A DNA stretch of 64,000 bases from a virus. Of this stretch, positions 31,968 to 64,000 are shown one piece after another. Under the pieces are notes generated by a model. That model worked only from the letters and a program-made list of their open reading frames with translations, was not told the DNA's origin and did no database searches. The position numbers were made by a program, and so were the translations under genes. The stretch spans positions 1 through 64,000 of the IMG/VR virus record IMGVR_UViG_3300021424_000003; one strand, given 5' to 3'. Within the stretch, counting starts at the first letter, position 1. Each line of letters begins with the position of its first letter.

Positions 31968-34900
31968 GAACGCTCCCTGGCTATTGATTCGGCACGCTTT
32001 ATCTTCTGCATAACAACATTGGCTATTTCTTCTGGCGAACTATTGCCACCATTGATGTGGAATGTATATGTATTACCACCACTGCTTGAAGTGCCAGCGA
32101 CAGCGGTGGAAGACATCGTATTAACAGATGGCGTCATTGCATCGCCTATCGCGCCAGGACCCGGGACGACGTGCAGATGTCTGCTGCCAGCTGTTCCATG
32201 GAATTCAGCAAAACCACCCGACTGGCGAGTTAGCACTGCATACTGGCCAAGATTCTGACCAACAAGGTCTATCGCTCTCCCCGTTACATGGTCTGAGTTT
32301 ATTGAGCCAAGATTCCCAGTCCTGTATGAGGAAGTAATTGTTCTGTTGCCAGTTAGTTGCGCATTTATTGCGCCATGGCGAGCCATTGTCTGCGATAGAC
32401 GCGAAGAAGTTGTATCACCAACAGAAGAGCCACGAGGAGTTGATGTGTCAGCTTTTTCTGCAATAAGTTTTATAAACTTATTCGTCATCCACTCTGGTTT
32501 GTTCGTACTGCTGAAGTATATAGCCATATTCTTCGAGAAGTTGTCCACAGCGGTTTTAAACGTTTCGCTGGCAGTATCCATCTTTTCAGCAACCAGATTT
32601 GCCCCCTCGTCCATGTCGCTAAGGGAAAGCTTATTGTTTTGTCCGTACTGAGCAAATATTTTGCTAGCTTGAGCCGACATAAATTCAGATTCAGTTGCAA
32701 AACCTGAATCTTTAATTAGCTTCTTTTTCTCTTCTTCTGTTTTATCAGCAAGAGGATTTTTAAAGTTAATCTTTCCAGCTTCATAGTCGGTAAGGAACTT
32801 ACGTCTGTTATCGGCACTCATTCCAGATATGAGGCCGCCTATCTCTTTATCGTTAGACAGGAACCCAAGACCAGCCATCTGCGCCGATATGTCGGCAGAA
32901 GCAGTGCCTATAAATCCCTGCTCTGTTCGTCTGTTTGAGGCATCAAGAGCATTTGTGACTCTATCTGTGAAGAAGTCCTTTGGGTCTATCCCGTACATAA
33001 AGCCACCAGGTTTAAATGCGGCTCCTGGGGCATCCTTTGTTCCTAGCTGGTCCTGCTGACCATAAAGCGCATCAATGGGGCTGTCGAACATAGAAAGTGA
33101 TGATTCCTGGAACTTCTTTAGCGCTTCAATAACAGCTATCGGGTCATTCCCGGAATCGACTGCACTAGCCAATGCAAAACCAGCTTCGTCGTATATTTGT
33201 GGGTCAACTATATTTTTTATGGCTTCGTCAAATGCACTTAAACCATCAGCAAATGAGTCGATGTTCATATTCTTTAGTTCTATCGCTGTTTTTCTAGTGG
33301 CAAATCCAAGGTCTGTAACAAGCTTGGTGAAGTCAACCATAGGGTCATAAAGGTCTATACCAAGTTTCTTTGCTAGTTGTTCAATTTCAGCGCCAGACTT
33401 ACCACTAGCCTCTTGTAGACGTTTCATTCTCACAGTCGTCTGCTCGTCTATGGTCTTCATTGCGTCGATTCTGTCCGGTAGACCTTTTTGCAGCTCTTTA
33501 AAACCAGAAGCCTCATCTTTGTCTAGCTTCTTAAGTTCTTCCTCTGAGAACAGGTCTTTAAATGCTGGGTCTTTTAGGGCGTCCTTGAAAACTGCTTTAT
33601 CTTTTTCTAGTTGCTTTTTACGCCCACCTCTATTGAATAGACCCTTCACTCCGCCAGCTATTCCGCCAACAAGACCGCCGATAGTCCCACCTATTGCTGC
33701 GCCTATTCCAGCCCCTATCGCTATGCCAAGTGGCCCGCCCACTGAACCTAATACTCCACCGGCAACCGTTCCCAAGCCTCCACCAATTTTTGCTCCCCCC
33801 TTAAACCCCCTCCCGGCTTGCTCCAAGGTTGAACCGGCGTACTTACCCTTGAATCCACCCTTCTGTAGTTTCTCCTGAAATCTTCCCAACTTGTCAGCAG
33901 TGTTTCCGGCCACACCACTCAAGCCCGCATCCATATTGGATATGTCGCCGCCTGCTGCCACGGTTGCTTCGATTCTTTTAATTCTTTCACCAGCGGCAAC
34001 AAATTCACTCATCATTATGTTGTCGAGGAATCCATTCATTGCTGCTTTAGCTTCTTTTGCACGTACGGCCATTCCGTTGGTGAATCCCCTAATTGCACCA
34101 GTTATGGTCCCCAGCGCTGCACCAACTGCAGTACCTATGCCAGGAGCAATCATCGTTCCTATTGCGGCACCAGCGCCAGCACCAGTTAATGCTCCAGCCT
34201 TAGCGCTTTGCGCATTAAGAGCTGCGCCTCCAAGACCAACAGCAAGACCGGCAAGCGGGTTGAATTGACCGACTATTCCTCCAAGAGCCATTGCACCCTG
34301 CATCTCTTCAGGCATAAATTGAGACGCAAGAGACATCCCCATACCTACGCCCATCTTTGCGCTCATTGAGTTGTTTATTCCGCCAATGCCAAGTTTTTCG
34401 TTGCCAAGGATTGCGGAGCCAAGTGCGCTTTCTCTTCTTGACCTGTTTGCCAGCCCGGCCATCCTCATGCGCGTCCCTACGCCTTCTCCTCTGCCGGAAA
34501 ATCCTTTTGTGGATACCTGACCAGCTTCGTTTATGGTTCCTATCTGTTGCCCAGTTTTAGTGCTAAGAATTCGACCAGTTGGAACCCTTACGTCATTCCC
34601 ATCGGCATCTTTTACAGTCGTCATTTCTTGGAATGCATACCTACGCCCGGTTGTCTTTGAGCGGAATAGGTCGTTTTCTCTTCCGTCTAGACCAAACGCC
34701 GGGTTGTATTGAGCACGATACATACGGGTTAGAAAATTAAGACGAGATGTTGCCCCAGTTGTTCCTGGTCCTCCAGCTCCCGGGGGCGCGGTGCCAGGTC
34801 CGCCTGTTCCACCGGACGGTGAACCTCCGGCACCAGGAGTCGTTCCAGCTGTGTATCCATTTCCAGGTCCACGTGCACCTGAAGAGAGTCTTTCTCCGCT

Positions 34901-36931: not shown

Positions 36932-36998
36932 AGGCGCTCCAACACTCTCAGACGATTTCTGTTTTAAAAAAATCGCGTGAGTGTAGGATGGCCAGGCT

Positions 36999-37196
36999 TT
37001 AGCCGGCGGCTTTCGCCCTACGCTCCTGCTCTTCGCGGTCGTTACTTATAACTTTAGCACAGGCAAGACGTATCAACCACTCCTCCTCAGAGGAGGCAAG
37101 AATAAGCACGGGGTCCGTGCCAAACAGTTCCCCAAGTCTGGCCGAAGATATGACCAGTGGGTCTTCAACTAATTCGTCGAAGACCCCTTCGTAGGG
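36999..37196 (-). CDS. Tail assembly chaperone -1 frameshift extension (gpGT-like)
   Basis: ATG-less open frame PYEGVFDELVEDPLV...RRAKAAG* overlapping the end of the chaperone at GAC-CCT-ACG. Confidence 0.65.
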   Translation of the reverse strand, partial: PYEGVFDELVEDPLVISSARLGELFGTDPVLILASSEEEWLIRLACAKVISNDREEQERRAKAAG

Positions 37197-37705
37197 TCCT
37201 CGACATCAACCGAATCGGAGTACCCGGCGGCGTCAAGAATCGAAAGAGCCGCAGCTTCGATGTGTGGGTCAACACCGAAGAACTCACGAACACAATCCGG
37301 AAGAGGCCTTGTCGTCTGAGTCATTTCGAGAATTGCGGGGGAGGCGAACGTCAGCTCATTGCCATTGTCGTCAAATACCTCTTCATCATCAAAGAGGAGA
37401 CCGATTGTTGTATGCCCAATAACTGAACATGCAAAACGTGTTGCATCCATGCCGTTTCTGGTGTCCTCACCAGCCTGCTTACGCCAGTTTTTCATCTGAT
37501 TTTGAGTGATGTTGGGGCTTATCTTTATCTTGACGCCAGGACGTTCTGGAACTGGGATATAGACAATGGGACGCTCCACTTTTTTCCTGATGACAGCAGA
37601 AAGCTTCTGGAGGGGGGTTTCGTTTGCCGGTAATTCGGCAGCCCTGCCCTTTGCCTTTGCGGGAGTCGGACTATCTGTTGTGTAAAGTTCAGTGTTATCG
37701 CTCAT
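37169..37705 (-). CDS. Tail assembly chaperone (gpG-like)
   Basis: Between tube and tape measure; ends EDPTKGSSTN; preceded by TGCTAGTTT-7nt-ATG (leaderless). Confidence 0.7.
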   Translation of the reverse strand: MSDNTELYTTDSPTPAKAKGRAAELPANETPLQKLSAVIRKKVERPIVYIPVPERPGVKIKISPNITQNQMKNWRKQAGEDTRNGMDATRFACSVIGHTTIGLLFDDEEVFDDNGNELTFASPAILEMTQTTRPLPDCVREFFGVDPHIEAAALSILDAAGYSDSVDVEDPTKGSSTN

Positions 37706-37757
37706 AGCGGAGAAACTAGCACACGAATCTGTGCGCTGCGTGAACTAGATAAAATTA

Positions 37758-38237
37758 TCAGCCAGCAGCACCCGCGCCAGACTCCACGTCTGAAATTGCA
37801 AATGTGAGGGAAAATGTGGCTGGGGCACCCGAGGATGAGTCGCCGTCTGGCTCCGTTATTCCTACCAGCAGGGCCTTTGCGTACACGCGGTCTGTGCCGG
37901 GAACCTTGAGGTCGCAGTCGAAGGTCTCAACCGTGATGTCATATTCCGCACGGCCGACCAGCGGACGAAGGGAGGCGATTTTCTCACCAATACCGGTGTT
38001 CGAGTCGGAGGCGATACGGTCATCGTCGTAGTGAGCAGTAAGCGTAATGTCGCCAACTTCAGATGGAGCACAGAGAACCGTTGGGCGCAGCTTGCCGCCC
38101 TCATAAATCTTCTCCACCGATGCGGTAATTTCGCCACCGGACACTTGAGCAAAGTAAAAGCCCGTCCATTTGGGGTGCTTTTCCGGAGCGACCGGAACAA
38201 TGCTCGCTAGTACTTGACGCTGAGATACTTTTGCCAT
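37758..38237 (-). CDS. Tail tube protein
   Basis: 159 aa immediately downstream of the sheath; FAQVSGGEI...GDITLT...FSLTF. Confidence 0.75.
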   Translation of the reverse strand: MAKVSQRQVLASIVPVAPEKHPKWTGFYFAQVSGGEITASVEKIYEGGKLRPTVLCAPSEVGDITLTAHYDDDRIASDSNTGIGEKIASLRPLVGRAEYDITVETFDCDLKVPGTDRVYAKALLVGITEPDGDSSSGAPATFSLTFAISDVESGAGAAG

Positions 38238-38251
38238 ATTTCTATCCCTCT

Positions 38252-39772
38252 CTAGACGACGCTAGCTGTTAGGTTCGACTTAATGATGTCGACTTCGATT
38301 TTGTCGCCAACGCTGCTGGTGCGGACACCAACTTTTGCCTTCACCGTGCCGCCAGCGAGCTGGCTAACGGGGTTGAGGGCTGCGTCACACCGAACGGTGT
38401 AGCCATTGTCGATTTTCTTACCATTTGCATCAAACGCCTGGAATAGCGCACCCTGCTCGCGCATCGGAGCAAGAATCGCTATGAGTCTAGAAGTAATCGC
38501 CGAGAAGATGGTGTCACGACCATCGATTACGCCGAACACTAGGTCTTCCAGCGAGCGCTGTGACTCCACAACCACGTGGTTAACAATTTCCTGAGTGGTA
38601 ATGAATCTGAAGTTCTCGTCATCGAACGAAAGCGCACGGGCTCCATAGATTCTTACCGAGTTCTGAATAATTCTGATTGCATTGATGTTGTTTAAATCCA
38701 GATTGTCGCCTGTCACCTTGTTGATATCTGCAGCAACCCCAGTGATAAATCTTCCCGCAGAAACTAGGCCAGCCGCCGGAACGTGAGCACCAGATTGATT
38801 GTGTGCGAGAGAGCGCTTAGCAGCTACATAGCCATCGGGCGGGATTCTCCGGATAACACCAGCTGTCGCAGTTGGCGCATCGACCCATGGGTAGTACATC
38901 GCTGCATGCTCTGAGCCATCTTCGGTCGATAGTGTTAGGGACTTAGCAGCCGCCTCGGATACGCTGTCATCTATGCCAGCATGAATTATTGCAATTCTGT
39001 TGTATTCATTTGCGTGAGCAATCAGTGCGTTTGAAATTTCAGGTGAAGCTTTTGTATCGCCGTCGTAGTCTGTATATGGGCTTGCTCCAGTAACTCTTCC
39101 GGCAGTTTCGCCGTCGGGGATTGAAACGGCACCAGTACCGAATGCGTCGTTGAACAAATCAAGACCGCCAATCAGGGCTGCGTCGTCAACGCTCGCTAGG
39201 TCGTCGAGTCCAGCAGTTAGCGCCGTAGAAGCCAGTGGTTCTGGAATCGTTGTAGCTCCAGATACTACTTCCGCCGAAACGTAACGAGAGGCAACTGAGC
39301 TGAGGTTAATTCTGCCAGCAGCCTGAGCAACCGTTGCAACAGTTCCTGTTGAGTAGACAATAACATCGTCGTACGAAACACTGATTACGAATGTTGAAGA
39401 TGTTGGGTTTGTTACTGTCACTTTAATATTCGAGCTCCATGCACCAGGGCCGTTTGCTGAAATTGTTAGAACTGGGTCGTCATCTGCGTCCTGCAAGACC
39501 TTAGTACCCGTTGATGCACCGCTGCCCACTACGCGGGCTACGTAGCATTGTGTGCCGCCTTCCTCGAAAAACGTTTCGACAGTTGGATGTAGGTATGAAT
39601 AGGCGACATATTCACCGTAGATGCTTTCAAAGTCAGCAATACTCTGCACAAGAGTTGCAGAATCAACTGGGCCGCGTGGCGCGAGACCAACAAAGAAGGC
39701 CTGCGAAGACTCGCGAACTGTTGCTGATGATGGGCCCGTTCTAACTGCTGTTGAGATAACTACGCCTGGCAT
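38252..39772 (-). CDS. Contractile tail sheath protein
   Basis: MPGVVI, FVG.A.RGP, FFEEGG..CYVARV, YYPW, PPDG..A, INAIR, IYGARAL. Confidence 0.92.
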   Translation of the reverse strand: MPGVVISTAVRTGPSSATVRESSQAFFVGLAPRGPVDSATLVQSIADFESIYGEYVAYSYLHPTVETFFEEGGTQCYVARVVGSGASTGTKVLQDADDDPVLTISANGPGAWSSNIKVTVTNPTSSTFVISVSYDDVIVYSTGTVATVAQAAGRINLSSVASRYVSAEVVSGATTIPEPLASTALTAGLDDLASVDDAALIGGLDLFNDAFGTGAVSIPDGETAGRVTGASPYTDYDGDTKASPEISNALIAHANEYNRIAIIHAGIDDSVSEAAAKSLTLSTEDGSEHAAMYYPWVDAPTATAGVIRRIPPDGYVAAKRSLAHNQSGAHVPAAGLVSAGRFITGVAADINKVTGDNLDLNNINAIRIIQNSVRIYGARALSFDDENFRFITTQEIVNHVVVESQRSLEDLVFGVIDGRDTIFSAITSRLIAILAPMREQGALFQAFDANGKKIDNGYTVRCDAALNPVSQLAGGTVKAKVGVRTSSVGDKIEVDIIKSNLTASVV

Positions 39773-49397: not shown

Positions 49398-50726
49398 CTA
49401 GAGGACTATAGCAATCCTTCTTTTAGATGGCAACCCCAATTCGGCAAGATGTGTAAAAGCCCCCACGGCGGAGTCAACCTGGTCATCATGGTCACAGGCC
49501 TCCGGGAAAGAGGAAAGCTCGTCCATCCAGGCGGTAAGCCACGGCCCCCTGATAATTCTCACGTTCCCATTGGCGACGGCTGCGGCAAATGGCCTAGCCC
49601 TGGTTACCTTGTCCCCAGTGGCCCTAGCCCCCATAAAGTCATAGCCAGGAAGCACATATCTGGCATATTGGTCCAGGAGGGCCTTCCCGGAGGAGCCCGG
49701 CTCCTGTTCCATTCTAATTGGGACACTTGGGCCGTCCTCATAGGCGGTCTGGGCTATCAATTGCTCGACTTTTTCGCCCCTCAGGCGCCCCCGCTTGATG
49801 TCCAAAATATAGACAATTCCGTCGGAAAACATCATCAAAGTCCCAACCGTCCAGTCGGGGTCAGGGTTTGAGTGACTCGGCTCGGTGGCTGCAAGGTCCC
49901 AAAATCGCACAATTCTTGCATTTGGGTCATTTTTGGGCACATCCGCCATGTCTATAATTTCCACAGATTCCCGCTCAAAAAGGGTTCCAAGGGTGGTGCT
50001 CCACCAGTCTCCCTCCTCAAGTCTGCGCCTTTCGATGGGGTCAAGGGCGGAAAGTGCCTGACGGTAGGAAACGGCGTCAATTCCTGGGTTATCAGCAAGC
50101 TTGCTGGGTACAAATATTCTGCCATCCTCCATTCCCTCGACAATAAAACGCTGCCTAACCCAGTTGGGGGCAGGGTTTGAGGCGCACCTCATCCTAAGGG
50201 GCACCTGAGAAAGTGGTCCACTAGCAGGGCGACGAAGGCGGGAAAACATGTATCTATAGTCTGCTTCACGGATTTCCGTTACTTCGTCCATGCCTATGAA
50301 TTGGAATTCTGAACCCTTGTATCTCAGGTAGTCGTTTTGATTGTTTAGGTAACCAAAGGAAATTCTTGCCCCCGATGGAAACGTGCCAACAAAGCTGTTG
50401 TTATTCCAGTGGACACCGTCGTAAAGATTTATCCAGCTTTTAAATCTGTCCATTAGGGCGCCGGGGAGAGATAGGTCGGCAAATGTACGCCTAAATAATA
50501 TTGCAGAATAATTCGGTATGTCTACATATTGAAGTGCCGACATCAATAGCGCCGACGACTTACCGCCCCCGGCCGCCCCACCGAATAGTGCTTCGATAGC
50601 ATTGGTGCGGAGAAAAACCTTCTGCGTTGTTGAGGGGTCCTCGGGGCAGAAGGGGGGGACACGCGGCTGAAGATATTCGAGTATCTTGCTCCACTTTTCT
50701 TCCTCTGCACTGCTCATATCTACCAC
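49398..50726 (-). CDS. terL: Terminase large subunit
   Basis: GGAAGGGKS Walker A, IGMDEV Walker B, ASNP, nuclease WDLA...HDDQVD. Confidence 0.92.
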   Translation of the reverse strand: MVDMSSAEEEKWSKILEYLQPRVPPFCPEDPSTTQKVFLRTNAIEALFGGAAGGGKSSALLMSALQYVDIPNYSAILFRRTFADLSLPGALMDRFKSWINLYDGVHWNNNSFVGTFPSGARISFGYLNNQNDYLRYKGSEFQFIGMDEVTEIREADYRYMFSRLRRPASGPLSQVPLRMRCASNPAPNWVRQRFIVEGMEDGRIFVPSKLADNPGIDAVSYRQALSALDPIERRRLEEGDWWSTTLGTLFERESVEIIDMADVPKNDPNARIVRFWDLAATEPSHSNPDPDWTVGTLMMFSDGIVYILDIKRGRLRGEKVEQLIAQTAYEDGPSVPIRMEQEPGSSGKALLDQYARYVLPGYDFMGARATGDKVTRARPFAAAVANGNVRIIRGPWLTAWMDELSSFPEACDHDDQVDSAVGAFTHLAELGLPSKRRIAIVL

Positions 50727-53157: not shown

Positions 53158-53690
53158 ATGTCAAAATCCTTCGTGAATCCTGAAATTCAGTACAAAGCTG
53201 CCACTCAGGGTGCAATAAACCTAGACGAAGCCAGGGGCATAGTCGAGTGTTTCGTGGCAGGAATTGGCAACAAGGACTCCGTTGGCGATGTTTGCGCCCC
53301 TGGGGCATTCGCCAAAAGCCTATTGCGCCGGAAACCAAGAGTTGTGTGGGGCCATAACTGGAACGACCCAATCGGCAAGGTTCTAGAAATTTACGAAGTT
53401 CCAGCAAACGACCCAAGACTTCCGAGCAAGATGAGAGCAGCGGGTATTGGTGGGCTCTACGCAAAAGTTCAATTCAACCTAATGTCAGAAAAAGGCAAGG
53501 AAGCATTTGCGAGTGTTGCATTCTTTGGCGAAGAGCAGGAATGGTCAATTGGGTATAAGACAATCAACGCAAAATTTGACCAGCAGATGCAGGCGAATGT
53601 TCTATTTGAGGTAGAGCTTTACGAGGTGAGCCCTGTTCTTCACGGTGCAAATCAATTGACTGGAACAATATCTGTTAAGTCGGATGAAAA
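53158..53690 (+). other. Domain: HK97-type prohead serine protease
   Basis: GNKDSVGD...GAF..S, VWGHNW..PIG (His), WSIGY (Ser), LYEVSPV..GAN. Confidence 0.9.
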
Positions 53691-56600
53691 TAATGCCACC
53701 GCAGTGATGGAAAGGGCTGTTAGTTCCATCGCGAATGCCGATAGTGAAAATTCTCCGGAACTAAAAGAGGTTCTATACGCACTCAGAAATATTGCTTCCA
53801 TGATTTCCGATAACGAGAAGCATGAGTATGGAATGCCCTCAGTAATGCCTTCAGCAAATAGACAACCTATTCCATCAATGCCAAGCCCTGCTCCGTCCAC
53901 GGCGCCGAGGTCAGTAGTCAAGCCAACAAGACCATCTATCCCTGAAAACCCCATGGTAGTTGCTCTTCGCCGTGAGCTGGTCGCAAGAACTGGGTCGAAC
54001 ATAATTGTCCGCTCTGCTGGAGACAATGTTGTTGTATTTGACCGAATTATGAGCGACGGTTCGTCTTGCACGTACAGACTTGCGTATCACTATGCAGATG
54101 GTGAATTCATGTTTGGTAAGCCAGAGAAGGTCAACGCGCAGACCGTTTACACTCCCGAGACTCCTGGGGCACCAGGAGATGCATACTGGGGAGACGATTA
54201 CTCAGAAACACCAAAGTCATTGCAATCTGGTGATTTTTGGAGTGCCGGTTTTTATAGCGAGCTGACCTCGCAGCCAGACACAAGCAATGCCCTCATGGAG
54301 GTGATAGAGAGTCTTCAACATCTAATCAATGAAAAATCGGAATACGTAATACCAGTAGAGCCGGCAGAGGCTTTTGAGTTAAGGCAAATGATTGACCCAG
54401 TTCTCGAGTATTACAACGCTGACGCCAGAGTAACCGAGGAGGGGATTGTAGTTAAGTCAGCACACAATCCAGAGCTAATTGAAGCTCTTGATGTCGCGAC
54501 TAAGTCCGTGCTGGGAAAAATCCGAAGGGGCATTGGCGCTGGAAGGCGTCTTGATGCTCCAAACATTGGTGGCGGTAAAGGTCGTAGCAGAGCAGCGCGA
54601 GCAATTGGCGCAGCAACTGGCGGTGTAGCTGGAAATCTAGACCCTTCAAAAATATCTCTCAACGACCCGGACGGAGACGGGTGGGCCAGAGAGGGTTCAA
54701 GAAATCCTGTTTGGGTTGGGTTTAAAAAAGCAGTAGAAAAAATTGCGGGCAGCGTTGGCCGGAAGAAGAAGCCATCAAAAGACAAGCAAAGGGCCCGCTC
54801 TGCTGTTAATGCAGATAAACCCGGTCCGCCGAGAGTAAGGTCCGGAGCGCCGTGGGATGCTCCATTAACTCCTGCTCCGCCTCGTCCTAGCAGAGTGACG
54901 CTTACAGATGATGCTGGAGCAAGACTAAGAGAACTCGGCAAAGAAAGAGCCAGAGAGCTTGGCTTTGACAGAAACATTGACCCCGTCCTTCCAAGACCGC
55001 GCAAGAAACTTACAAACCAAGTATCCGCTGCCCCACGCCCTGGAGAGGGCAGAAGTAGGGCATCGGGCGAATCAATTGCGAATGCAATACGTCGCTCAAA
55101 GAGCGCACCAAACCCTGTCCTTGGCCAGGAAATGGCAAATGATGTAGCTAAGTTCGGCTACCCGGAAGAGATGTCAACGGATGACCTAGTGAGAACGGTC
55201 GGCAAATTTAGAGGAGAAATAGCCAAGGCTAGAGAGAATCTAGAAAAGATTCAGGCAGATAGAGACTCTGGCAAAAAAGTATCTTCTTCAGAAATCGGAA
55301 AAGCTAGACAAAGTGTCGACTCCCTCCGTCAGAGAGCGTCTGTTTACTCATCCGAAATATCAAAGCGCGACAAAATAAAAGGTTCCGACAGATTCTCTTC
55401 AGGAAAAGCCATTACCCCAGAAGACAGACGCAAAAGAAGACATGCTCCGCTGGGTACAACTGGAGAATTTGACCTTCCAGACGAAGTTGCCACAAGAAAT
55501 AAGCACGAAGAGTTTGTAGCAGAATTTAGAAAAAACAACGGATTTTGGCTGGATATCCCAAGAGAGGGAACCGTCGCTTCAATGAATACGTCGGAGGAGT
55601 GGCAGAGGGCTAGAGAAATAGCAACAAACGTCGGGATTCTTGAGTGGCAGGAAAATGAAAGAAATAGAAGGCCGAAGGGTTTTAGCGAAAAAGCGCGTTC
55701 GTCCATGGACTACCTAACATGGTTCGGTGGATATACAAAGCGCCTTGGTGACTATCTCGATAGGGAAGAGTCCAGTGAAAATGTAACCGATGACGAACTT
55801 GCTGGTGCAAGGGCGGCAGTACTAGATGCATTGGCATTCAGAATGGCAACGCCAACTGGTCCAGAAAGCCAAAATACGCTTGCGGCAATGCTCGCAGACG
55901 CCGGATTCGGTCCAAATGGAAAACACGAAAAAGCATTCGGTGGGCGCAAGAAATCCAGCGTTGTTGGATTCTCTTCTGGTCGCGGAAACAGAGTAGACAC
56001 TCGAGTGCTAGACCAACTTATGAACGATGGTAAAGAGGTCAGCGACGATGACGTGAAGGCAATACTTATGCCTAACGCCGGCATATTGATGCATCCAGAA
56101 TATAACGACAGAACCGGCGAGGTATCTCTTGGCTGGAAGAACGTCCTAGAATCCTCATTAGAGGACAGGAGTTTCAATAGGGGTTCCCAGAGGGCGATGA
56201 TTCGCCTTGACGATGAGGGTTATCAAAAATTTACAGAGGCACTAGAAGCAGCAAATGGAGAGCTGACCCCATCGGACGGCCTGCCATCTAGCTCAAGAAG
56301 CGTAAGGGACAGGGAATACCCATATTCATGGGGCAAGTCTCGAATGGGGGCTTTTTCATCTGGGCGCAAGTATCCACCAGAAATAGAAGACGAGCTTGTA
56401 TTCGATTCCGAACTGGGCGGCAATAGAGCAGCAGACAGAATCAATACCGAAAATGTCGACATGGAGATAGTTCCATCTTCCGATATTGGCCTTGATGGTC
56501 CAGATGATGGAGCATGGACTGTTGTCGGCATGTACAGGGGAGAAGACTATGGCTCCGTCGACTACATCTATGAACTAGATACTTTTGATTCGGTAGAAGA

Positions 56601-59600
56601 AGCAAGACGCTTCATAGAGACATTTGACAGATTGATAGATGAGGAAATTAGACCTGGCGACCCAGATTTCTTCCTCGATATAGATAACTACAACAAAGAC
56701 AACAAAATATCCCTGGATGATGACCTTGACTCCGCTATATCTAAGGCTGTTCAGTCAAGAAAAGATAGAGAGAACGACCCATACGACTATGGCAGTCTCC
56801 TGTCATCAGTTCTTTCCGACAGGTCATTAAACCTTTTTGGTGATGGAGAATCAAGATTCTCTTCCGGAAGAAACAAAGCAGAAAGACGCCAATCTGTCAA
56901 GAGAGTCATGGCAGAAGATATGGCCGATAGAGAGGTCAATCTAGGAATACTTTCTCGCCGCATGAAGGGTGAAACCCTGGACGAAGTAGGTAGAGCATAC
57001 GGAATAGACAGGGGAACAGTCCGCCAAATGGAGATGCGCGAGATGAAGCGTCTCAGGGATGGAGCAACACCAAGCGAAATACTTGCCTACAGAATGACAG
57101 GCCTCACACTCGACGATATGGGCAGAATGCTCGGCATGTCCCGTGAAGAGGTTAGAAGAATCGAGTCTAGAGAAATAGCACGGATGAGACTCGGCGGTCG
57201 CGACGGAAGCGACGCGATATTCGAGGGTCGTAAAGCTGGTCTAAGCCGCAATTCAATCAAAAAGCTAACTGGCATGTCTATGGATGACATAGCGACTAAG
57301 GAAAGAAAAGGATTTGAGAGGGCCGTAACACGAGAAGATGTCTCTCATCAGATATTTGACAAATACGTAACTAGATTCGGCGAAGACGAACTAACTGATG
57401 CGGAACTTGCGGAGGAGCTAGGGGTTAGCGAAAGAATTGTTTCCGAAGTTCGCGCGGGGGCAAAGAAAGACATACTCGATGCCCGTCGTGGCATGGACGA
57501 ACACTACAGCAGCCTTCCGGAGCCAACCGACGAAGAGCTTCAGGAGATGGCAGACTACTATGCAAATGATTTTGCTAGAGAGCAGGGTTTTGGCTCCTAT
57601 GCGGAGTATAAGGATTATGTTTCCAGTGTCGGCAGGGAAGACGATGGAGAGAGGCTGTCTTCTGGAGCAGGTAAGCGCGACCTTACATTTAGTCAAAAAG
57701 TTGGTCAAAGAGTATTTGAGGAAGCAGAAAAGATAGCCAAAGAAGACAATAGGGACATTTTCGACACCCTGGATTCGCTCGTCTTTGATAAGCGCATGGA
57801 TTCAACGAATCGTAGAAAAGATTTCGATGTAGCAGAGATGTATTCTCACATTAATTCCCTTCTTTTCCCAGAGGGTGCTAGAGAAAGCAGGAAGCGCAGA
57901 CTCTGGAGAAGAGAAAGACTCTCCTCTGGCAGAACCGGTAGAGGTCGGAAGAATCGGCGACAGGGCAAATCAAATCAGGGAGCATGGTCAGAAGAGGACC
58001 TTCAGAGATTCCGCGATAGAAATGTTCTACGCGCCAAAACTCGTCCCGGAAAGCGCAAGGATGGCCCATCAGCGGAAGAATTCTCTTCTGGACGCAAGAG
58101 AATAGATACGGCCGGTAGTTCAGCGCTGACTGGAGCATTCTACGATGCCGACAACAAAAGGCTTGTTGTCGGATTCAACAAGGGTGGGGTATATGCCTAT
58201 GACGGCGTAACCCCAGAAGACATAGAAGAGATGCACAATGCCGAAAGCAAAGGTGCAGCTATGGCTTCTATCAAGAAGAAGTACAAAGGCGTAAGACTTT
58301 CAGAAGCGGACGACAGCTTTAAGGCCACCAAACAGGGTGACGAATGGGTTGTAAATCCAGATAACGAAACGACTTACTCAATATCCGAAGACGGTGGAGA
58401 GTTCTTTGTTCTGAGAACTTCTGGAAGCTACGCACGCGATGGCGGCCAGTCTGGAGATGAGTACTACCATCCAGAGTCGTTTAAGAATATGGACTCCGCG
58501 ATGAAGTGGGTCGAGCAGGACTTCCTGCCATCAATAACTCCAGAACCGTGGGACGAAGATGACTACGATGTAGACAGGCTTTCATCTGGTGGGCCAGCTC
58601 GCGCCGCAGCCCAGATGCAATTTGATACTCGTAGAAGTAGAAAAGCGACAGAAATGACATACGACCCGCAAGACGGTCGTGTTGGAATAACTTATAACGA
58701 TGGAAAGCAGAGATTCTTCTCCGAGGTGCCTTACGAGGTTGCTAGGGCGGCAGGCAATCCATCAAAAGATATAGACAACTTCATTGATGACCTAGAGCGC
58801 GGGAAAGTGGGCAAGGAGGGCGGAAGATTTAGTTCCGGTGCAAGCTCGGTGCCTCGCACTGACTTTGATTACTCCTATCAGAAGTTCCCACCGACAGAAG
58901 AGCAGGCAGTCATTGCGGATGCGGTGGCGACTGGCGAGAACGTAATTGTAAGAGCATTCGCCGGCACTGGCAAAACTTCTACTCTTGTAATGATTGCTGA
59001 GAGACTGAAGCGTCAGGACCCAAAGAAGAAAATCGTCTACATGGCGTTCAACAAGGACATCCAGCTTGAGGCTGAGGGAAAGTTCCCTGGTAATACAGAG
59101 TCACGAACAGGCGACTCCATATCGTGGAACTGGGTCAAGCAGACAATGGGCGAAGCCTTCACGGACAGAATGAAGGGCAACCCACCAGAAAGAGTGAAGT
59201 CAAAGGGAACAAGAAACAAGGATATATCTATTCATTTCAAGATTAAACAAATGGAGCATCCGGACGGGCTAAAAGATGAGAAAACCGGAAACCCCATAGT
59301 CCTTGATGCTGTTGATGTTACAAAGCTTGTAAGAGAAGCGGTTAAAGAATTCCTTATTTCGGAAGACGATGAGATAGGCACACAGCACTTTAAGAAAATA
59401 CAGAATGTTCCACCAGCTCTTTTGGGACATGCCAAAGCTATATGGGATGACATGAACGACCCTGATGGCGTGATGAAATTGGATAACTCCGTATTCACCA
59501 AGATGTGGGCACTATCTAGGCCTCAGCTCAGTGACGGTGTCGGTCTATTCAAAGGAAAGCCATCAGTAATATTCTTTGACGAAGCTCAGGACATAAACCC

Positions 59601-62600
59601 AGTAATGGCAAAAGTCATGCGGGAACAGAACATCCAAGTTATATTTGTTGGAGATAGTTACCAGGCTATTTACGGATTCCGTGGAGCATCGGACAGTCTC
59701 GAGAAAGCGGAAGCCACATATGACTTGCCTCTCACTGGGTCATGGAGATTCGACAGCAAGATAGCTGGATACGCAAACAGATTCCTAGCGTACATGGGTT
59801 CAAAAGATAGAATTCGTGGCGTAGGAAAGCCGGGTGATGGTGTTGTTGAACCAGAGTCGATGGTTGACCCAGATGCAATTCTGACAAGAAGTAACGGTGG
59901 GGCGCTACGTGCAGTTGTTGAGCAAATAAAAAACGGAAGAATCGTAGGGACTTCGGAAAACTTCAAGAAAGACCTAACGAAATTCGCATGGCACGCAATA
60001 AGTCTCAAGGCCGATAAGCCAGTAAAAAATCCACATCCAGAACTAGAGGAATTCTCTTCATGGCAGGAGGTTACAGATGCAGCCAACGCCGAGGATGCAA
60101 GCCCTCGACTAAGAATGCTTGTACAGCTATTCAATGACACACCAAACATTATCGAGATACTGGACCAAGTCGTTGTCGGTGGCAAGCTCAGGGGGGAATC
60201 TGGTGGAGGCTCCGGCAAGAGGATTCTTCCTAGCGAAGTAACAGATGGCTTTGAGATGTCCATAGACCCAAGCAGTCTGGGTAAATGGGCAGGAGACAAA
60301 AAGACATCCGTTTTGTACAAAAATGGAAAACTGTTCTTTCAGTTGCCATACACAGCAAAAGGCTCATCTGGTGATGACAGCAAAAAGAGCTGGATTAAAG
60401 AAAACTTAGGAAAAATCAATCGCTTTGAGTATGGCAAGCCAGAAGAGACTGGCGGCAAGTTTGCAGTATTCGTAGACGCAACACCAGAACAGGCTGCAAA
60501 ACTTCTCTCCGGAATAACATCGGGTGATGCTCAGGAAGTAGACGTCATGGTAATGACGGCACACAGGTCAAAGGGTCTTGAGTTCGGAAAAGTTCAGCTT
60601 TACGGAGACTTCCCAAGACCAAGAAAGAACAAGAATACCGGTGAGATGGAGTACCCAGCTCCGGAAGAGCAAAGACTTCAGTACGTTGCATCAACTAGGG
60701 CCATACGCGAACTAGACCCAGGCCCAACTTCATGGATATATAACGAAACATCTGAAGATGACGAAAGCCCAGGCGTACCTAGTGGTTTCTCGTCTGGCGC
60801 AAAAGGTAACCCAATGCCGAGCGCCATTGGTAAGGACATGGTTCTAGAAGACGGCGGCACATACGAAGACAACATGTTTAGGGGCACGTACGTTGCCGAC
60901 TTTAATGGCGGGAAGATGGTAATCCAGCCGGCAGGCAGGGATTCGTGGGCTGTTTACAGGGCAGACTTTATGGGCGGCGAAGATGGGCCTTCTTACAACT
61001 TCAGCTATGGTCCACCAACGGACGAGTCTGAGTTCAGTTCACTCGCAGACGCATACGAGCATGTTCTCAATTATGTAAAAGACAACGACATAACGCTTGA
61101 CCAGATGGATGGAAGTCGCCGCTCAAAGGGGAGTGAGTCCTTCTCGGTGGCAAAAATCGGAAACTCCGGTTCTGGAATATCTGAAAGATTTAGCTCAGGT
61201 CGCAAGAATGCCGATAAAAGATTAAAGGCAGCTAGAAAATTTTCAAGGGGGGGAGATGCCGATGATGATGGTCGTCTGTCTTCTGGAAAGAGAGATTCTG
61301 ACGAAGGGTTCGCATCGGGCCGAATACTGTCTCGACTTCGCGGCCGAGAAGAAACCACTCAGAAAGAAGCAGATGAACTCTATAAATGGGCGGCGGAAGC
61401 AAGCAAGAAGCGTCCCGACGACGAATACTTGAGTCGCGTTGTTGGTAAGGGCTCAGAATACGGAGAAGGTCTAGACGAAAAAGACTTCGAATACATACGC
61501 CAACAACAGCTCATTGATTTTATAGTCGATAACGACCTGCACCTACGCGACCCGGAAGGAGCTGGTCGAATATTAGATATATGGACCGGTGAAAGCCGGG
61601 GAAGAATTAAAGATAAAGACTGGGAGGCCCTGTCGGAACTCCGATACCGGCGCCAACAGAGAGAGGACGACGCATTTAATCGTGAAGCATTAAAGGACGT
61701 TGCCGAATCGCAAGGCATGCCACGTGACGACCAGCAAAAACTTGCCATTTTTGCGTGGGCGGCTTCTCGATTTGGGAAATATCCACTGGTAGAAGACGTC
61801 GTGAGAGGTGGGAGAACAAACATCCCAAACAGCCTCGACGACAGAGAATGGAAATTTCTTAAAACCGAATGGCTCAACAGCGACGCTCCAGACCCACAAC
61901 CACTCAACACTAGAATGACCAATGGTGACATGGGCCCAGATAGGTATCTAGAACAAGACTATCTAGCGTACATGCGCGAGAGCGGTATGACCGGCTTGCT
62001 GGAAAAGTACCAGACGCGAGGTGGACTGACCGGCAAAGATTGGGCTTATGTAAAGAAGTTACACGACGACCTTGGCCCAAGGGGATGGCGAAATCCAAAG
62101 AGTGCCTCATACAGGGGAATAACTAGAAAAGAAAGAAGGGAAATTGACAAAAAAACTGGACGCCTGAGTGATTGGGATGTTCTGACCGAGGCACAAAGAG
62201 CTTCACTAGAGAAGCGCAAGGAAAAATTCAACCTTACAGAATCAATGGCCAACGCGCTTTCTTCAGGCCGTACCACCCCGAATAAGCCCAAACAGGATGA
62301 TGGTCGTTTGTCTTCTGGCGGTGACCCTACTCCTGAACAGATTGAAGCGGAAGACAGAGAAAATAGGGCTGACTTCTACAAGAACAGCTCTGGTCTTTAT
62401 GAAAATGAACTTGCCGAATGGCTGGATGCAAATCCAAGCAAGACAGAAAAAGACTATGAGTCAAGCCCTGAATTTGCAGAGAGACTTGACGATATGGACA
62501 GCATCATGGGCGATTTCGCCGATGCTGAGGCAGAACGTCGTCTAGATGATTATGCAAATCGCATGTCGTCCGGGGGAAAGCCACCCCGTTATCCACGACC

Positions 62601-64000
62601 CCCCACGCTCGGAGCGTTTCTCGGTTCTACGGATGACTTATTCAAAAATGTAGATTCATGGGAAGATTTCAGGAATATATACAACGACCAAGAAATCATA
62701 TTTTTTGATTACGAAACTACCGGTTTAGTATTTGATGAATTCGGCAGAGCGACTAGCAACGGAGCACCAGTTCAGTTTGGTGCAGTAAAAATTAAAAACG
62801 GCAAAGAAATAGGCCGAATAAACCTATTCATGAACCCCGGCGAGTCGCTCGGAGAATGGTCGCGAAACAATCTCAAAGACATAGACGGAAATCCACTAAC
62901 AGATGACTGGCTTGGTGGACAGATTTCCGTTGAAGATGCTCACAAACAGCTAATCGAGTTCGCTGGGGCTGATGCAATATTCGGAGTTCAAAATGCAACG
63001 TTTGATAAAGCTGTTTTGGACGATGTGTTATCAAAAATGAAATCGGACTGGAGGCCGTCAGGCTACATAGATACACGAGAGCTCGCAAGCCTTGTGCTCC
63101 CCAGATGGACACCAGAAACAGAAGATGGGCCATTTCAGACAAACAAAGATGGTGAAAAGGTCCCTTCCTCAAGTCTTGCCGCAATTACTGAATATCTTGA
63201 CGTTGAGCTTGGAGATGGCCACCACAACGCAGATGTTGATGCTTTCGCAGCAAGCGAAGTAATGAGAAAAATGATTGATGGGGCAATCGAAAATGATTGG
63301 TCGCGAGATGCCCTATCAAAAGAAAAACGTGATTCTCGTCATGCGGAAACGATTGCAAAATTTGAAGAGAGCGTTCGGCAATTTGAGTCAGAATTAAGCC
63401 AGTATGGTCTATCTTCTGGGCGCCGCCAGCGGCCATCTGATGAGGAGATTTATAACCTCAGAATGTCTGGCCCAACCCTAGAGGAAGTCGGGGAGAAGTA
63501 TGGAATGACGCGCCAAGAAGTGCGCGCTGCAGAAATGCGCCATATCAGGAAAATGCGTGATGCCGACTTTGAGGCAACTGGGGCACAGACATCTAGAAGA
63601 GAGCGTCGTCTATCTTCTGGAGGGAGACCCACACGCGCCGGTTCAGCAAAACAAAGAGGGAAAGTAGTCCTCACAAGCCAAGAACCAGGCGGTAAGTGGA
63701 CTGACGTACCAGAAAACCAACTAAGTCGAAAAGACGATTTCTTTGACAATGAAACAGCTTCAAGAATATTGGATAACCCACTAGAGAATTACAACGACCA
63801 AACCGGCTGGCCAGTAGCTGCTAGGGATTTCTTCCAAAGCCTAGTTTTGCAGCAAGAAGGAAGAGACATTCCTGTAATGGATGAAGATGGAAGGTTCACG
63901 CCTGAAGGACGCAACCAAGTCAAGAAGATGCTTTTCGGCTCTAATGAAGCAAGGGAAAAATTCCTAGACCAAATAGAGTCAGGCGATGTATCTCATATGC
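53158..64000 (+). CDS. Giant prohead-protease-led polyprotein (at least 3614 aa; runs off the window; absent from ORF track)
   Basis: ATG 53158 after AAGGAG; codon-by-codon translation found no stop up to 64000. Confidence 0.9.
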   Translation, partial: MSKSFVNPEIQYKAATQGAINLDEARGIVECFVAGIGNKDSVGDVCAPGAFAKSLLRRKPRVVWGHNWNDPIGKVLEIYEVPANDPRLPSKMRAAGIGGLYAKVQFNLMSEKGKEAFASVAFFGEEQEWSIGYKTINAKFDQQMQANVLFEVELYEVSPVLHGANQLTGTISVKSDENNATAVMERAVSSIANADSENSPELKEVLYALRNIASMISDNEKHEYGMPSVMPSANRQPIPSMPSPAPSTAPRSVVKPTRPSIPENPMVVALRRELVARTGSNIIVRSAGDNVVVFDRIMSDGSSCTYRLAYHYADGEFMFGKPEKVNAQTVYTPETPGAPGDAYWGDDYSETPKSLQSGDFWSAGFYSELTSQPDTSNALMEVIESLQHLINEKSEYVIPVEPAEAFELRQMIDPVLEYYNADARVTEEGIVVKSAHNPELIEALDVATKSVLGKIRRGIGAGRRLDAPNIGGGKGRSRAARAIGAATGGVAGNLDPSKISLNDPDGDGWAREGSRNPVWVGFKKAVEKIAGSVGRKKKPSKDKQRARSAVNADKPGPPRVRSGAPWDAPLTPAPPRPSRVTLTDDAGARLRELGKERARELGFDRNIDPVLPRPRKKLTNQVSAAPRPGEGRSRASGESIANAIRRSKSAPNPVLGQEMANDVAKFGYPEEMSTDDLVRTVGKFRGEIAKARENLEKIQADRDSGKKVSSSEIGKARQSVDSLRQRASVYSSEISKRDKIKGSDRFSSGKAITPEDRRKRRHAPLGTTGEFDLPDEVATRNKHEEFVAEFRKNNGFWLDIPREGTVASMNTSEEWQRAREIATNVGILEWQENERNRRPKGFSEKARSSMDYLTWFGGYTKRLGDYLDREESSENVTDDELAGARAAVLDALAFRMATPTGPESQNTLAAMLADAGFGPNGKHEKAFGGRKKSSVVGFSSGRGNRVDTRVLDQLMNDGKEVSDDDVKAILMPNAGILMHPEYNDRTGEVSLGWKNVLESSLEDRSFNRGSQRAMIRLDDEGYQKFTEALEAANGELTPSDGLPSSSRSVRDREYPYSWGKSRMGAFSSGRKYPPEIEDELVFDSELGGNRAADRINTENVDMEIVPSSDIGLDGPDDGAWTVVGMYRGEDYGSVDYIYELDTFDSVEEARRFIETFDRLIDEEIRPGDPDFFLDIDNYNKDNKISLDDDLDSAISKAVQSRKDRENDPYDYGSLLSSVLSDRSLNLFGDGESRFSSGRNKAERRQSVKRVMAEDMADREVNLGILSRRMKGETLDEVGRAYGIDRGTVRQMEMREMKRLRDGATPSEILAYRMTGLTLDDMGRMLGMSREEVRRIESREIARMRLGGRDGSDAIFEGRKAGLSRNSIKKLTGMSMDDIATKERKGFERAVTREDVSHQIFDKYVTRFGEDELTDAELAEELGVSERIVSEVRAGAKKDILDARRGMDEHYSSLPEPTDEELQEMADYYANDFAREQGFGSYAEYKDYVSSVGREDDGERLSSGAGKRDLTFSQKVGQRVFEEAEKIAKEDNRDIFDTLDSLVFDKRMDSTNRRKDFDVAEMYSHINSLLFPEGARESRKRRLWRRERLSSGRTGRGRKNRRQGKSNQGAWSEEDLQRFRDRNVLRAKTRPGKRKDGPSAEEFSSGRKRIDTAGSSALTGAFYDADNKRLVVGFNKGGVYAYDGVTPEDIEEMHNAESKGAAMASIKKKYKGVRLSEADDSFKATKQGDEWVVNPDNETTYSISEDGGEFFVLRTSGSYARDGGQSGDEYYHPESFKNMDSAMKWVEQDFLPSITPEPWDEDDYDVDRLSSGGPARAAAQMQFDTRRSRKATEMTYDPQDGRVGITYNDGKQRFFSEVPYEVARAAGNPSKDIDNFIDDLERGKVGKEGGRFSSGASSVPRTDFDYSYQKFPPTEEQAVIADAVATGENVIVRAFAGTGKTSTLVMIAERLKRQDPKKKIVYMAFNKDIQLEAEGKFPGNTESRTGDSISWNWVKQTMGEAFTDRMKGNPPERVKSKGTRNKDISIHFKIKQMEHPDGLKDEKTGNPIVLDAVDVTKLVREAVKEFLISEDDEIGTQHFKKIQNVPPALLGHAKAIWDDMNDPDGVMKLDNSVFTKMWALSRPQLSDGVGLFKGKPSVIFFDEAQDINPVMAKVMREQNIQVIFVGDSYQAIYGFRGASDSLEKAEATYDLPLTGSWRFDSKIAGYANRFLAYMGSKDRIRGVGKPGDGVVEPESMVDPDAILTRSNGGALRAVVEQIKNGRIVGTSENFKKDLTKFAWHAISLKADKPVKNPHPELEEFSSWQEVTDAANAEDASPRLRMLVQLFNDTPNIIEILDQVVVGGKLRGESGGGSGKRILPSEVTDGFEMSIDPSSLGKWAGDKKTSVLYKNGKLFFQLPYTAKGSSGDDSKKSWIKENLGKINRFEYGKPEETGGKFAVFVDATPEQAAKLLSGITSGDAQEVDVMVMTAHRSKGLEFGKVQLYGDFPRPRKNKNTGEMEYPAPEEQRLQYVASTRAIRELDPGPTSWIYNETSEDDESPGVPSGFSSGAKGNPMPSAIGKDMVLEDGGTYEDNMFRGTYVADFNGGKMVIQPAGRDSWAVYRADFMGGEDGPSYNFSYGPPTDESEFSSLADAYEHVLNYVKDNDITLDQMDGSRRSKGSESFSVAKIGNSGSGISERFSSGRKNADKRLKAARKFSRGGDADDDGRLSSGKRDSDEGFASGRILSRLRGREETTQKEADELYKWAAEASKKRPDDEYLSRVVGKGSEYGEGLDEKDFEYIRQQQLIDFIVDNDLHLRDPEGAGRILDIWTGESRGRIKDKDWEALSELRYRRQQREDDAFNREALKDVAESQGMPRDDQQKLAIFAWAASRFGKYPLVEDVVRGGRTNIPNSLDDREWKFLKTEWLNSDAPDPQPLNTRMTNGDMGPDRYLEQDYLAYMRESGMTGLLEKYQTRGGLTGKDWAYVKKLHDDLGPRGWRNPKSASYRGITRKERREIDKKTGRLSDWDVLTEAQRASLEKRKEKFNLTESMANALSSGRTTPNKPKQDDGRLSSGGDPTPEQIEAEDRENRADFYKNSSGLYENELAEWLDANPSKTEKDYESSPEFAERLDDMDSIMGDFADAEAERRLDDYANRMSSGGKPPRYPRPPTLGAFLGSTDDLFKNVDSWEDFRNIYNDQEIIFFDYETTGLVFDEFGRATSNGAPVQFGAVKIKNGKEIGRINLFMNPGESLGEWSRNNLKDIDGNPLTDDWLGGQISVEDAHKQLIEFAGADAIFGVQNATFDKAVLDDVLSKMKSDWRPSGYIDTRELASLVLPRWTPETEDGPFQTNKDGEKVPSSSLAAITEYLDVELGDGHHNADVDAFAASEVMRKMIDGAIENDWSRDALSKEKRDSRHAETIAKFEESVRQFESELSQYGLSSGRRQRPSDEEIYNLRMSGPTLEEVGEKYGMTRQEVRAAEMRHIRKMRDADFEATGAQTSRRERRLSSGGRPTRAGSAKQRGKVVLTSQEPGGKWTDVPENQLSRKDDFFDNETASRILDNPLENYNDQTGWPVAARDFFQSLVLQQEGRDIPVMDEDGRFTPEGRNQVKKMLFGSNEAREKFLDQIESGDVSHM
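56870..57480 (+). other. Domain: 3-4 tandem sigma70-region-4-like HTHs
   Basis: TLDEVGRAYGIDRGTVRQMEMREMKRLR; TLDDMGRMLGMSREEVRRIESREIARMR; TDAELAEELGVSERIV. Confidence 0.75.
58093..58290 (+). other. Domain: KTSC (copy 1)
   Basis: SSALTGAFYDADNKRLVVGFNKGGVYAYDGV.......NAESKG. Confidence 0.8.
58591..58824 (+). other. Domain: divergent KTSC-like (copy 2)
   Basis: MTYDPQDGRVGITYNDGKQRFFSEVPYEV. Confidence 0.55.
58840..60783 (+). other. Domain: UvrD/Rep-like SF1 helicase
   Basis: PTEEQ, AFAGTGKTS, YMAFNK, DEAQD, VGDSYQAIYGFRGA, LTGSWRF, TAHRSKGLEF, EEQRLQYVASTRA. Confidence 0.92.
62575..63405 (+). other. Domain: DEDDh (DnaQ-like) 3'-5' exonuclease
   Basis: FFDYETTG (ExoI), QNATFD (ExoII), HNADVD (ExoIII). 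Confidence 0.88.
63421..63606 (+). other. Domain: single sigma70-region-4-like HTH
   Basis: IYNLRMSGPTLEEVGEKYGMTRQEVRAAEMRHIRKMR. Confidence 0.75.

Follow-up and report, generated by a model that had tools for sequence, protein, structure and literature searches.

A giant protease-led protein of a lake phage, punctuated by a repeated peptide, as a candidate head-cargo polyprotein

Bases 1 to 64,000 of the IMG/VR virus record IMGVR_UViG_3300021424_000003 (the window) end inside a giant open frame that begins with an HK97-type prohead protease. The record is linear, 119,344 bases long and ~79% complete by CheckV, so the frame can be followed past the window. It starts 100 nt 3' of a portal gene and is unstopped at the end of the window, where the open reading frame (ORF) listing gives it 3614 amino acids (aa; 53158..63999, plus strand). 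In the whole record the same frame reaches a stop codon at 67368 and encodes 4,736 aa, the last 1,122 of them beyond the window. About twenty unrelated modules lie along this chain, and a short peptide, [F/L/M]-S-S-G, recurs in it 20 times; we call this peptide the tag. The original prediction, made from the window's letters, described one frame of at least 3614 codons directly after the portal, opening with an intact HK97-type maturation protease, and both points are borne out. It proposed looking for the stop codon and the capsid gene, and both have been located (Table 1). This work asks what such a protein might be for.

Table 1. Features of the window and of the remainder of the record. 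Positions are those of the window unless marked as record; aa numbers refer to the giant protein unless another protein is named.
Feature	Position	Strand	Evidence or remark
Tail sheath, tube, chaperone and tape measure genes	31964..39772	-
Tail tape measure, 1,655 aa	31964..36931	-	phrog_1533 E 1.5e-11, phrog_167 E 1e-10; downstream of sheath, tube, chaperone
Tape measure tag RLSSGA, its aa 682	34877-34888	-	motif scan
Tape measure tag RLSSGA, its aa 39	36806-36817	-	motif scan
PAPS-reductase-type domain protein, 379 aa	42888-44027	-	PF01507 E 1e-8; upstream of tail genes
Large terminase	49398..50726	-	just upstream of portal, opposite strand
Portal protein, 700 aa	50955..53057	+	PF04860 E 1.5e-46; phrog_2662 E 6e-62
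Giant protease-led ORF	53158..64000, on to 67368 of record	+	ORF calls, profile matches, contig cover
Peptidase_S78 (HK97-type prohead protease), aa 28-172	53239..53673	+	PF04586 35.8 bits, cut-off 21
Conserved post-protease anchor region, aa 176-745	53683..55392	+	alignment, AlphaFold2 model
Tag 1, RFSSG, aa 746	55393..55404	+	motif scan
Tag 2, GFSSG, aa 938	55969..55980	+	motif scan
Tag 3, AFSSG, aa 1066	56353..56364	+	motif scan
Tag 4, RFSSG, aa 1234	56857..56868	+	motif scan
Helix-turn-helix (HTH) module: two Sigma70_r4 stretches and HTH_3/HTH_31, aa 1264-1348	56947..57201	+	PF04545 E 1.4e-14
Tag 5, RLSSG, aa 1500	57655..57666	+	motif scan
Tag 6, RLSSG, aa 1588	57919..57930	+	motif scan
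Tag 7, EFSSG, aa 1642	58081..58092	+	motif scan
KTSC domain, aa 1654-1703	58117..58266	+	PF13619 E 3e-12
Tag 8, RLSSG, aa 1808	58579..58590	+	motif scan
Tag 9, RFSSG, aa 1891	58828..58839	+	motif scan
UvrD-type superfamily 1 (SF1) helicase, aa 1903-2520	58864..60717	+	phrog_1967 E 1e-79; PF00580, PF13361, PF13245
Tag 10, GFSSG, aa 2544	60787..60798	+	motif scan
Tag 11, RFSSG, aa 2678	61189..61200	+	motif scan
Tag 12, RLSSG, aa 2707; variant GFASG next, at aa 2717	61276..61287	+	motif scan
Tag 13, ALSSG, aa 3034	62257..62268	+	motif scan
Tag 14, RLSSG, aa 3051	62308..62319	+	motif scan
Tag 15, RMSSG, aa 3136	62563..62574	+	motif scan
DEDDh (RNase_T-type) exonuclease, aa 3177-3397, between tags 15 and 16	62686..63348	+	PF00929 E 2e-6; phrog_192 E 4e-19
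Tag 16, GLSSG, aa 3418	63409..63420	+	motif scan
Weak third sigma-r4-like HTH, aa 3440-3467	63475..63558	+	PF04545 E 8e-5, 22.5 bits, below cut-off 24.1
Tag 17, RLSSG, aa 3485	63610..63621	+	motif scan
Tags 18-20, aa 4059, 4312, 4357	beyond window	+	motif scan
Acidic protein, 525 aa, very acidic, Cys-rich N-terminal stretch	record 67456-69033	+	next after the giant protein
Second giant, 2,213 aa, three tags R-[MF]-S-S-G in last third	record 68993-75634	+	no Pfam or PHROG matches
HK97-type capsid gene	record 81440..82771		PF05065 E 2e-43
WhiB-family gene	record 89306-89521	+	PF02467 E 2e-15

The giant frame and its domains

The giant frame is a genuine gene, and the lake phage that carries it is uncultured and has a contractile tail. 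Across 53001-68000 all 30 bins are covered at 99% identity or more by contigs of four lake-water metagenome runs, none of them flagged as a possible source of the record. These contigs have neither indels nor joints and differ in nine single bases; four of the differences are synonymous, five missense and none stop-making. The identical 4,736-aa protein is also present on two contigs in a protein collection, and no RNA dataset is listed among the holders of the record. An assembly chimera or a chance open frame would have to be reconciled with independent contigs of four runs that span the whole frame free of indels and joints, with hundreds of relatives, and with domain matches spread over its entire length. 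Such an artefact can in practice be set aside.

The assignment of the first domain to family S78 does not depend on the profile score alone. The motifs GHNW and WSIGY are both present, and H66 and S130, which we take to be the catalytic pair of the family, are unchanged in 15 of 15 aligned relatives. The gene lies between the portal gene and the gene of an HK97-fold capsid protein with an N-terminal extension, and this domain is the only head protease found. It is the single S78 match in the 119-kb record, which at ~79% completeness could still lack a second copy.

The region that follows, which we call the anchor, is kept in all relatives. The AlphaFold2 model predicts small alpha/beta domains at about aa 265-325 and 375-460 and a helical hairpin at aa 653-741; its mean predicted local distance difference test score (pLDDT) is 60, with 80-95 in the folded parts and disordered stretches joining them. 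The region has a D-x-D-x-D-G motif, no Pfam match and no Foldseek match in PDB at E <= 0.001.

The cargo behind the anchor is close to what had been predicted. The sigma-r4 HTHs are there: the two Sigma70_r4 stretches and the further HTH matches all fall within aa 1236-1501, and the weak third HTH sits in the segment aa 3420-3486. Two KTSC domains had been claimed, of which one is clear and the other weak (aa 1810-1892, E 0.089, below cut-off). The full SF1 helicase occupies the entire segment between tags 9 and 10 (aa 1891 to 2544), and the DEDDh exonuclease has motifs D-x-E, D and H-x4-D readable in the translation. Beyond the window the chain ends in a unit that qualifies as ArdC (phrog_7245, E 1e-80): the ssDNA-binding ArdC-N domain (aa 4365-4481, PF08401 E 2e-24) followed by a zincin of the MPTase-PolyVal family (MPTase; aa 4509-4635, PF18818 E 4e-45) with its HExxH motif. 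Ten uncharacterised segments gave only sub-threshold matches against Pfam at E <= 1. One stretch, aa 3487-4060, gave no usable match in the ESM Atlas.

Tags and cassettes

The tag is far too frequent to be an accident of composition. Its 20 copies compare with 0.33 on average, and never more than 3, in 2,000 shuffles. The rest of the record (~31,600 residues) holds 7, of which the second giant has three and the tape measure two, with two more elsewhere. The residue before it is Arg in 14 of the 20, and the consensus is [R/G]-[F/L/M]-S-S-G. No tag splits a detected domain; helicase, exonuclease, KTSC, HTH and ArdC each lie within one inter-tag segment. The description of the cargo as motif-delimited thus holds up well. 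A DNA-level repeat can be rejected as the origin of the tags because their codons vary (six for Ser, from both codon families, four for Gly and five for Leu), which argues for selection on the tag peptide instead.

The relatives tell us what the segments between the tags are. Of 1,391 candidates scored, 197 are giant relatives of 2,604-8,288 aa at E <= 0.001, and relatives of the protease domain turn up in at least 594 stretches of IMG/VR; the 4,736-aa protein is the longest of the 130 distinct giants compared. Against two close relatives, P0004 (81% identical) and P0005 (78%), the inter-tag segments align over their full length, and it is whole segments that differ. P0004 is without aa 2680-3052 and the exonuclease segment aa 3138-3419 and has others peculiar to it. 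Among more distant relatives the order of homologous segments is different. Cargo content and order therefore vary as tag-bounded cassettes, the kind of variation that the original prediction had proposed to look for among protease-led ORFs. Minimal relatives of 1,002-1,240 aa still have the protease, the anchor and a conserved C-terminal module, with three or four tags. The order of portal, protease protein, acidic protein and second giant is conserved in relatives.

The tag itself differs from clade to clade. We find R-[FL]-S-S-G, K-L-S-S-G, G-L-S-S-G, G-L-A-S-G and G-L-A-S-[RST], and further D-G-F-A-S-R-G, G-M-R-S-R and S-S-R-S-[KQT]. These share a grammar of a hydrophobic residue, then S, A or R, then an invariant Ser. 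In 106 of the 130 distinct giants a repeated word of the form ??S? exceeds all 50 shuffles, and 104 of these words are tags; two are not, and 24 giants fail the test. The tape measure of this phage carries two tags, and class-matched tags are found in the tape measures of 4 of 4 other genomes: G-M-R-S-Q (G006), A-S-R-S-Q (G007), K-F-S-S-G-R (G004) and G-L-A-S-S (G005). This comparison covers genomes outside the GLAS class and outside G001, a genome of the GFASR class that the tape measure search did not pick up. The capsid comparison below likewise covers classes other than GLAS; a search of IMG/VR with the GLAS-class relative P0038 found none. By eye, the GLAS-class giants P0032 and P0038 have a module of kinase-like appearance, together with a conserved C-terminal module that they seem to share with the minimal forms L075, L036 and L082.

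Processing and delivery: the proposal and its alternatives

We lean, with confidence a little above even, toward reading this protein as a 'polyvalent' head-cargo polyprotein that is led by the S78 protease, cut at the tags and delivered with the DNA. An S78 prohead protease must trim the capsid protein inside the procapsid. The N-terminal unit, made of the only S78 domain found in this phage and the ~500-residue anchor, would be built into the procapsid, and some twenty modules would hang behind it: HTH binders, KTSC, the SF1 helicase, the DEDDh exonuclease, modules of unknown kind, and ArdC with its zincin. The tag would act as a processing signal between modules, most likely cut by S78 itself after hydrophobic-x-Ser, which has the three-residue grammar of assemblin-fold proteases. 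Once freed, the modules would remain inside the head and pass into a new host along with the DNA; by analogy with ArdC biology and with virion-borne polyvalent proteins, they could serve anti-restriction and early takeover. The comparison with relatives shows that the tag allows modules to be gained, lost and reordered as cassettes. The features that speak for this reading are the intact and sole S78, its place among the head genes, the variable cargo delimited by tags, and the anti-restriction unit ArdC. The original prediction also had the proteins loaded into the head, separated as the head matures and ejected with the DNA. It is partly supported by what we find, and those three steps are what we infer.

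Several points weigh against the proposal. The same tag occurs on the tape measure. This protein is assembled outside the capsid and is no part of the prohead interior, so a prohead-only protease does not explain its tags. Judged by residue count, each protease copy would bring about 0.5 MDa of cargo, which would crowd the head unless the copy number were low. No slippery run able to yield a short form was found in the frame: a protease-only product made by slippage is rejected, there being no A or T run of 8 or more, and the longest homopolymer runs (7 G at 61247, 7 A at 62149) are both distant from the protease. Classes with different residues at the constrained tag positions have protease domains that are 68-87% identical. 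A candidate capsid cleavage site, [V/L/M]-[F/Y]-[S/T], lies roughly where maturation cleavage would be expected, presumably, from the position of the HK97 cleavage relative to the N-arm. It is the same across tag classes (10 capsid proteins, six classes, 71-86% identical); their N-terminal regions are alike, and no co-variation of this site with the tag was found. Among 116 phage records that match aa 1-745 none covers more than 30% of that region, the covered part being the protease domain alone, and no cultured relative is known.

As the probable reader of the tag we favour S78 over the MPTase. S78 is the only protease common to all forms of the giant. Known assemblin-fold sites are L/I-x-E in T4 and S/A-x-E in phiKZ (PMC9026906) and LQA-T and VQA-S in pseudorabies virus (PMC4498786), and the tag has their P3-x-P1 shape, which we count for S78. 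The candidate site in the capsid protein, near the expected maturation position, counts for S78 as well. Across 110 distinct relatives, residue 53 of the protease (53314-53316 of the window) is the best of 176 columns for separating the tag classes. Where the second tag residue is Ser or Ala, 91 of 93 proteins have K at this column; where it is Arg, 17 of 17 have E, G or S. The change looks charge-complementary to that of the tag. There is an exception, L082, which has K53 with three RGARS tags, and the link probably reflects one or two evolutionary events; both points detract from it. The competing idea is that the zincin of the ArdC unit cuts the tags, in the producing cell or after ejection, with S78 left to capsid maturation and to serving as a loading handle. 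Several points favour it. MPTase is present in 18 of 28 related records, this one included; four records have a completeness of 90% or more, and three of them have it. In G006, G007, G009 and G002 it is missing from the protease-led frame but found in another giant frame of 1,104-2,741 aa. A cytoplasmic reader could also reach the tape measure tags, and processing by this peptidase was proposed for polyvalent proteins by Iyer et al. (PMC5512222). However, G005 is 91% complete and has class-specific tags in its protease protein and tape measure with no MPTase at all. Fragments with minimal forms (G011, G012, G013) lack it too, though at 21-58% completeness, and the MPTase is itself a tag-flanked cargo module. 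Taken with the hydrophobic-x-Ser shape and the residue-53 link, these points make the zincin an unlikely reader.

It may instead be wrong to think of cutting at all. The tags could be docking, unfolding or translocation motifs in the flexible linkers of proteins that leave through the tail, with the chain delivered uncut like the virion RNA polymerase (vRNAP) of phage N4. This would account for a tag common to head cargo and tape measure, both of which are ejected, and it fits selection on the peptide and a capsid site that does not follow the tag class. Giant uncut virion proteins are known, and N4 vRNAP is named among the polyvalent proteins in PMC5512222. We nevertheless doubt it, about as strongly as we doubt the zincin: the motif is shaped like assemblin-fold cleavage sites, every detected domain is flanked by tags as at polyprotein junctions, and modules with unrelated targets would function better once freed. 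Less probable still, in our judgement, is that the chain is an expression device alone, cut in the producer's cytoplasm into modules that act late in infection and are not packaged. The tape measure tags do imply a reader active outside the capsid, and helicase and exonuclease activities could be of use in replication or packaging. Yet the gene lies within the head operon, and the ArdC family acts on incoming DNA. Herpes assemblin is nearly inactive until concentrated in capsids (PMC4498786), and polyvalent proteins have been detected in virions according to a preprint (10.64898/2026.04.10.717836).

Our preferred reading of a cut and delivered head cargo can be pushed further. A genome-specific hydrophobic-x-Ser code with clade-specific flanks might mark every large protein that leaves the virion (the cargo polyprotein, the second giant and the tape measure), with S78 reading it, residue 53 switching charge along with the tag, and the cassettes freely exchangeable. 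Hundreds of lake actinophages would then carry different injected toolkits behind a nearly invariant protease. We offer this tentatively, and would sooner doubt it than build on it.

Known systems, neighbouring genes and host

The general idea is not ours. Iyer, Burroughs, Anand, de Souza and Aravind defined polyvalent proteins in 2017 (PMC5512222), and that paper gives ArdC-N and MPTase as hubs, has phage examples beside portal-terminase genes, and proposes delivery with the DNA and release by embedded peptidases. It also draws the analogy with RNA-virus polyproteins, so the original prediction of an RNA-virus-like strategy fits in outline but is less new than it seemed. The giant protein resembles polyvalent proteins in most respects. 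Their definition asks for 2-15+ unrelated domains, and here S78, HTH, KTSC, SF1 helicase, DEDDh exonuclease, ArdC-N and MPTase share one frame. Three of these are of the hub type (MPTase PF18818, ArdC-N PF08401 and the UvrD-type helicase), the domains belong to biological conflict, and terminase, portal, capsid and tail genes surround the frame. The difference lies in the peptidase. Assemblin-like peptidases are rare there and 'always at the C termini', whereas here it is the capsid protease of the phage itself and comes first in the chain, at aa 28-172 of 4,736. A repeated junction peptide is not described in the accessible text of that paper. What is new is therefore the N-terminal capsid protease and the repeated junction tag code, within a general strategy predicted in 2017. 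Our literature search found no N-terminal prohead protease leading a tag-punctuated cargo chain, though the architecture lists of Iyer et al. may hold one.

Other phages load cargo into the prohead, trim it at a three-residue motif with an assemblin-fold protease and eject it, as we propose here from the sequence. Examples are the internal proteins and Alt of T4 and the ejection proteins of phiKZ and SPN3US, which in SPN3US amount to more than 40 MDa. In T4, cargo tagged with the capsid targeting sequence (CTS) is loaded into the head and trimmed by gp21 (PMC9026906). Such cargo consists of separate gene products with targeting propeptides of their own, cut after Glu; in T4 a ~10-residue N-terminal propeptide is removed at L/I-x-E. 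Here there is one chain of about twenty modules behind the protease and a motif that ends in Ser. The cargo system may work like that of T4 without belonging to it.

Herpesvirus UL26 is similar in another way, as an assemblin-fold protease at the N terminus of a longer polypeptide. Its downstream part binds the capsid protein, it releases itself at hydrophobic-x-Ala/Ser-type sites, and it is inactive until concentrated in the capsid (PMC4498786). However, UL26 has scaffold alone downstream and two sites, against ~4,000 residues of enzymes and DNA binders and ~20 candidate sites here. Very large multi-domain proteins also travel in the heads of other phages, with ejection either known or supposed: phi24B gp47 (a polyvalent protein of 2,811 aa that a 2026 preprint, 10.64898/2026.04.10.717836, detected in the virion proteome), DarB/DdrB of P1 and N4 vRNAP. 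Neither a prohead protease domain nor a repeated junction tag is reported for them. The nearest head genes are those of the actinophages GMA6 and DalanDe (Gordonia) and Cantare (Brevibacterium), with protease 39-43% and capsid protein 48-49% identical in the same gene order. In these phages the capsid gene lies within ~1.2-1.7 kb of the start of the protease match, whereas here 28 kb of cargo and other genes come between.

Should the capsid protease cut at the tags, these phages would possess a simple and evolvable route by which any protein could be carried in the capsid and set free in the next cell infected, a natural parallel to the CTS fusions engineered in T4. The segments would then form a catalogue of candidate injected anti-defence and takeover proteins, mostly of unknown fold, from abundant freshwater phages, and the 2017 idea would gain a concrete processing code, open to in vitro tests on a few hundred residues of protein. 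The tags of the tape measure would join head cargo and tail content in one processing system. We know of no such link in any model phage.

The capsid gene begins 14 kb downstream of the giant frame, and ~140 residues of its product precede the conserved N-arm. Five more frames before it lack a functional annotation, one of them matching DUF3721 and one phrog_6439. A tRNA scan of the window found none. The sheath, tube and chaperone genes are what point to a contractile tail. The host is probably an actinobacterium, judged from the WhiB gene, a hallmark of actinobacteria and their phages, from the lake-water metagenomes that hold the stretch, and from the Gordonia and Brevibacterium phages that have the nearest head genes.

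Some smaller observations concern the genes around the giant. The portal protein has a run of P-G-M-P repeats after its Pfam domain (aa ~420-450), seen also in related portals (L075, L082). Minimal relatives have an acidic protein of 456-490 aa in the same place, and the Cys-rich stretch of the acidic protein resembles, by eye, a Cys-rich anchor insert of other clades (alignment columns ~300-345). Relatives likewise have a giant at the position of the second giant, and it is this protein that bears the ArdC-MPTase unit in some of them.

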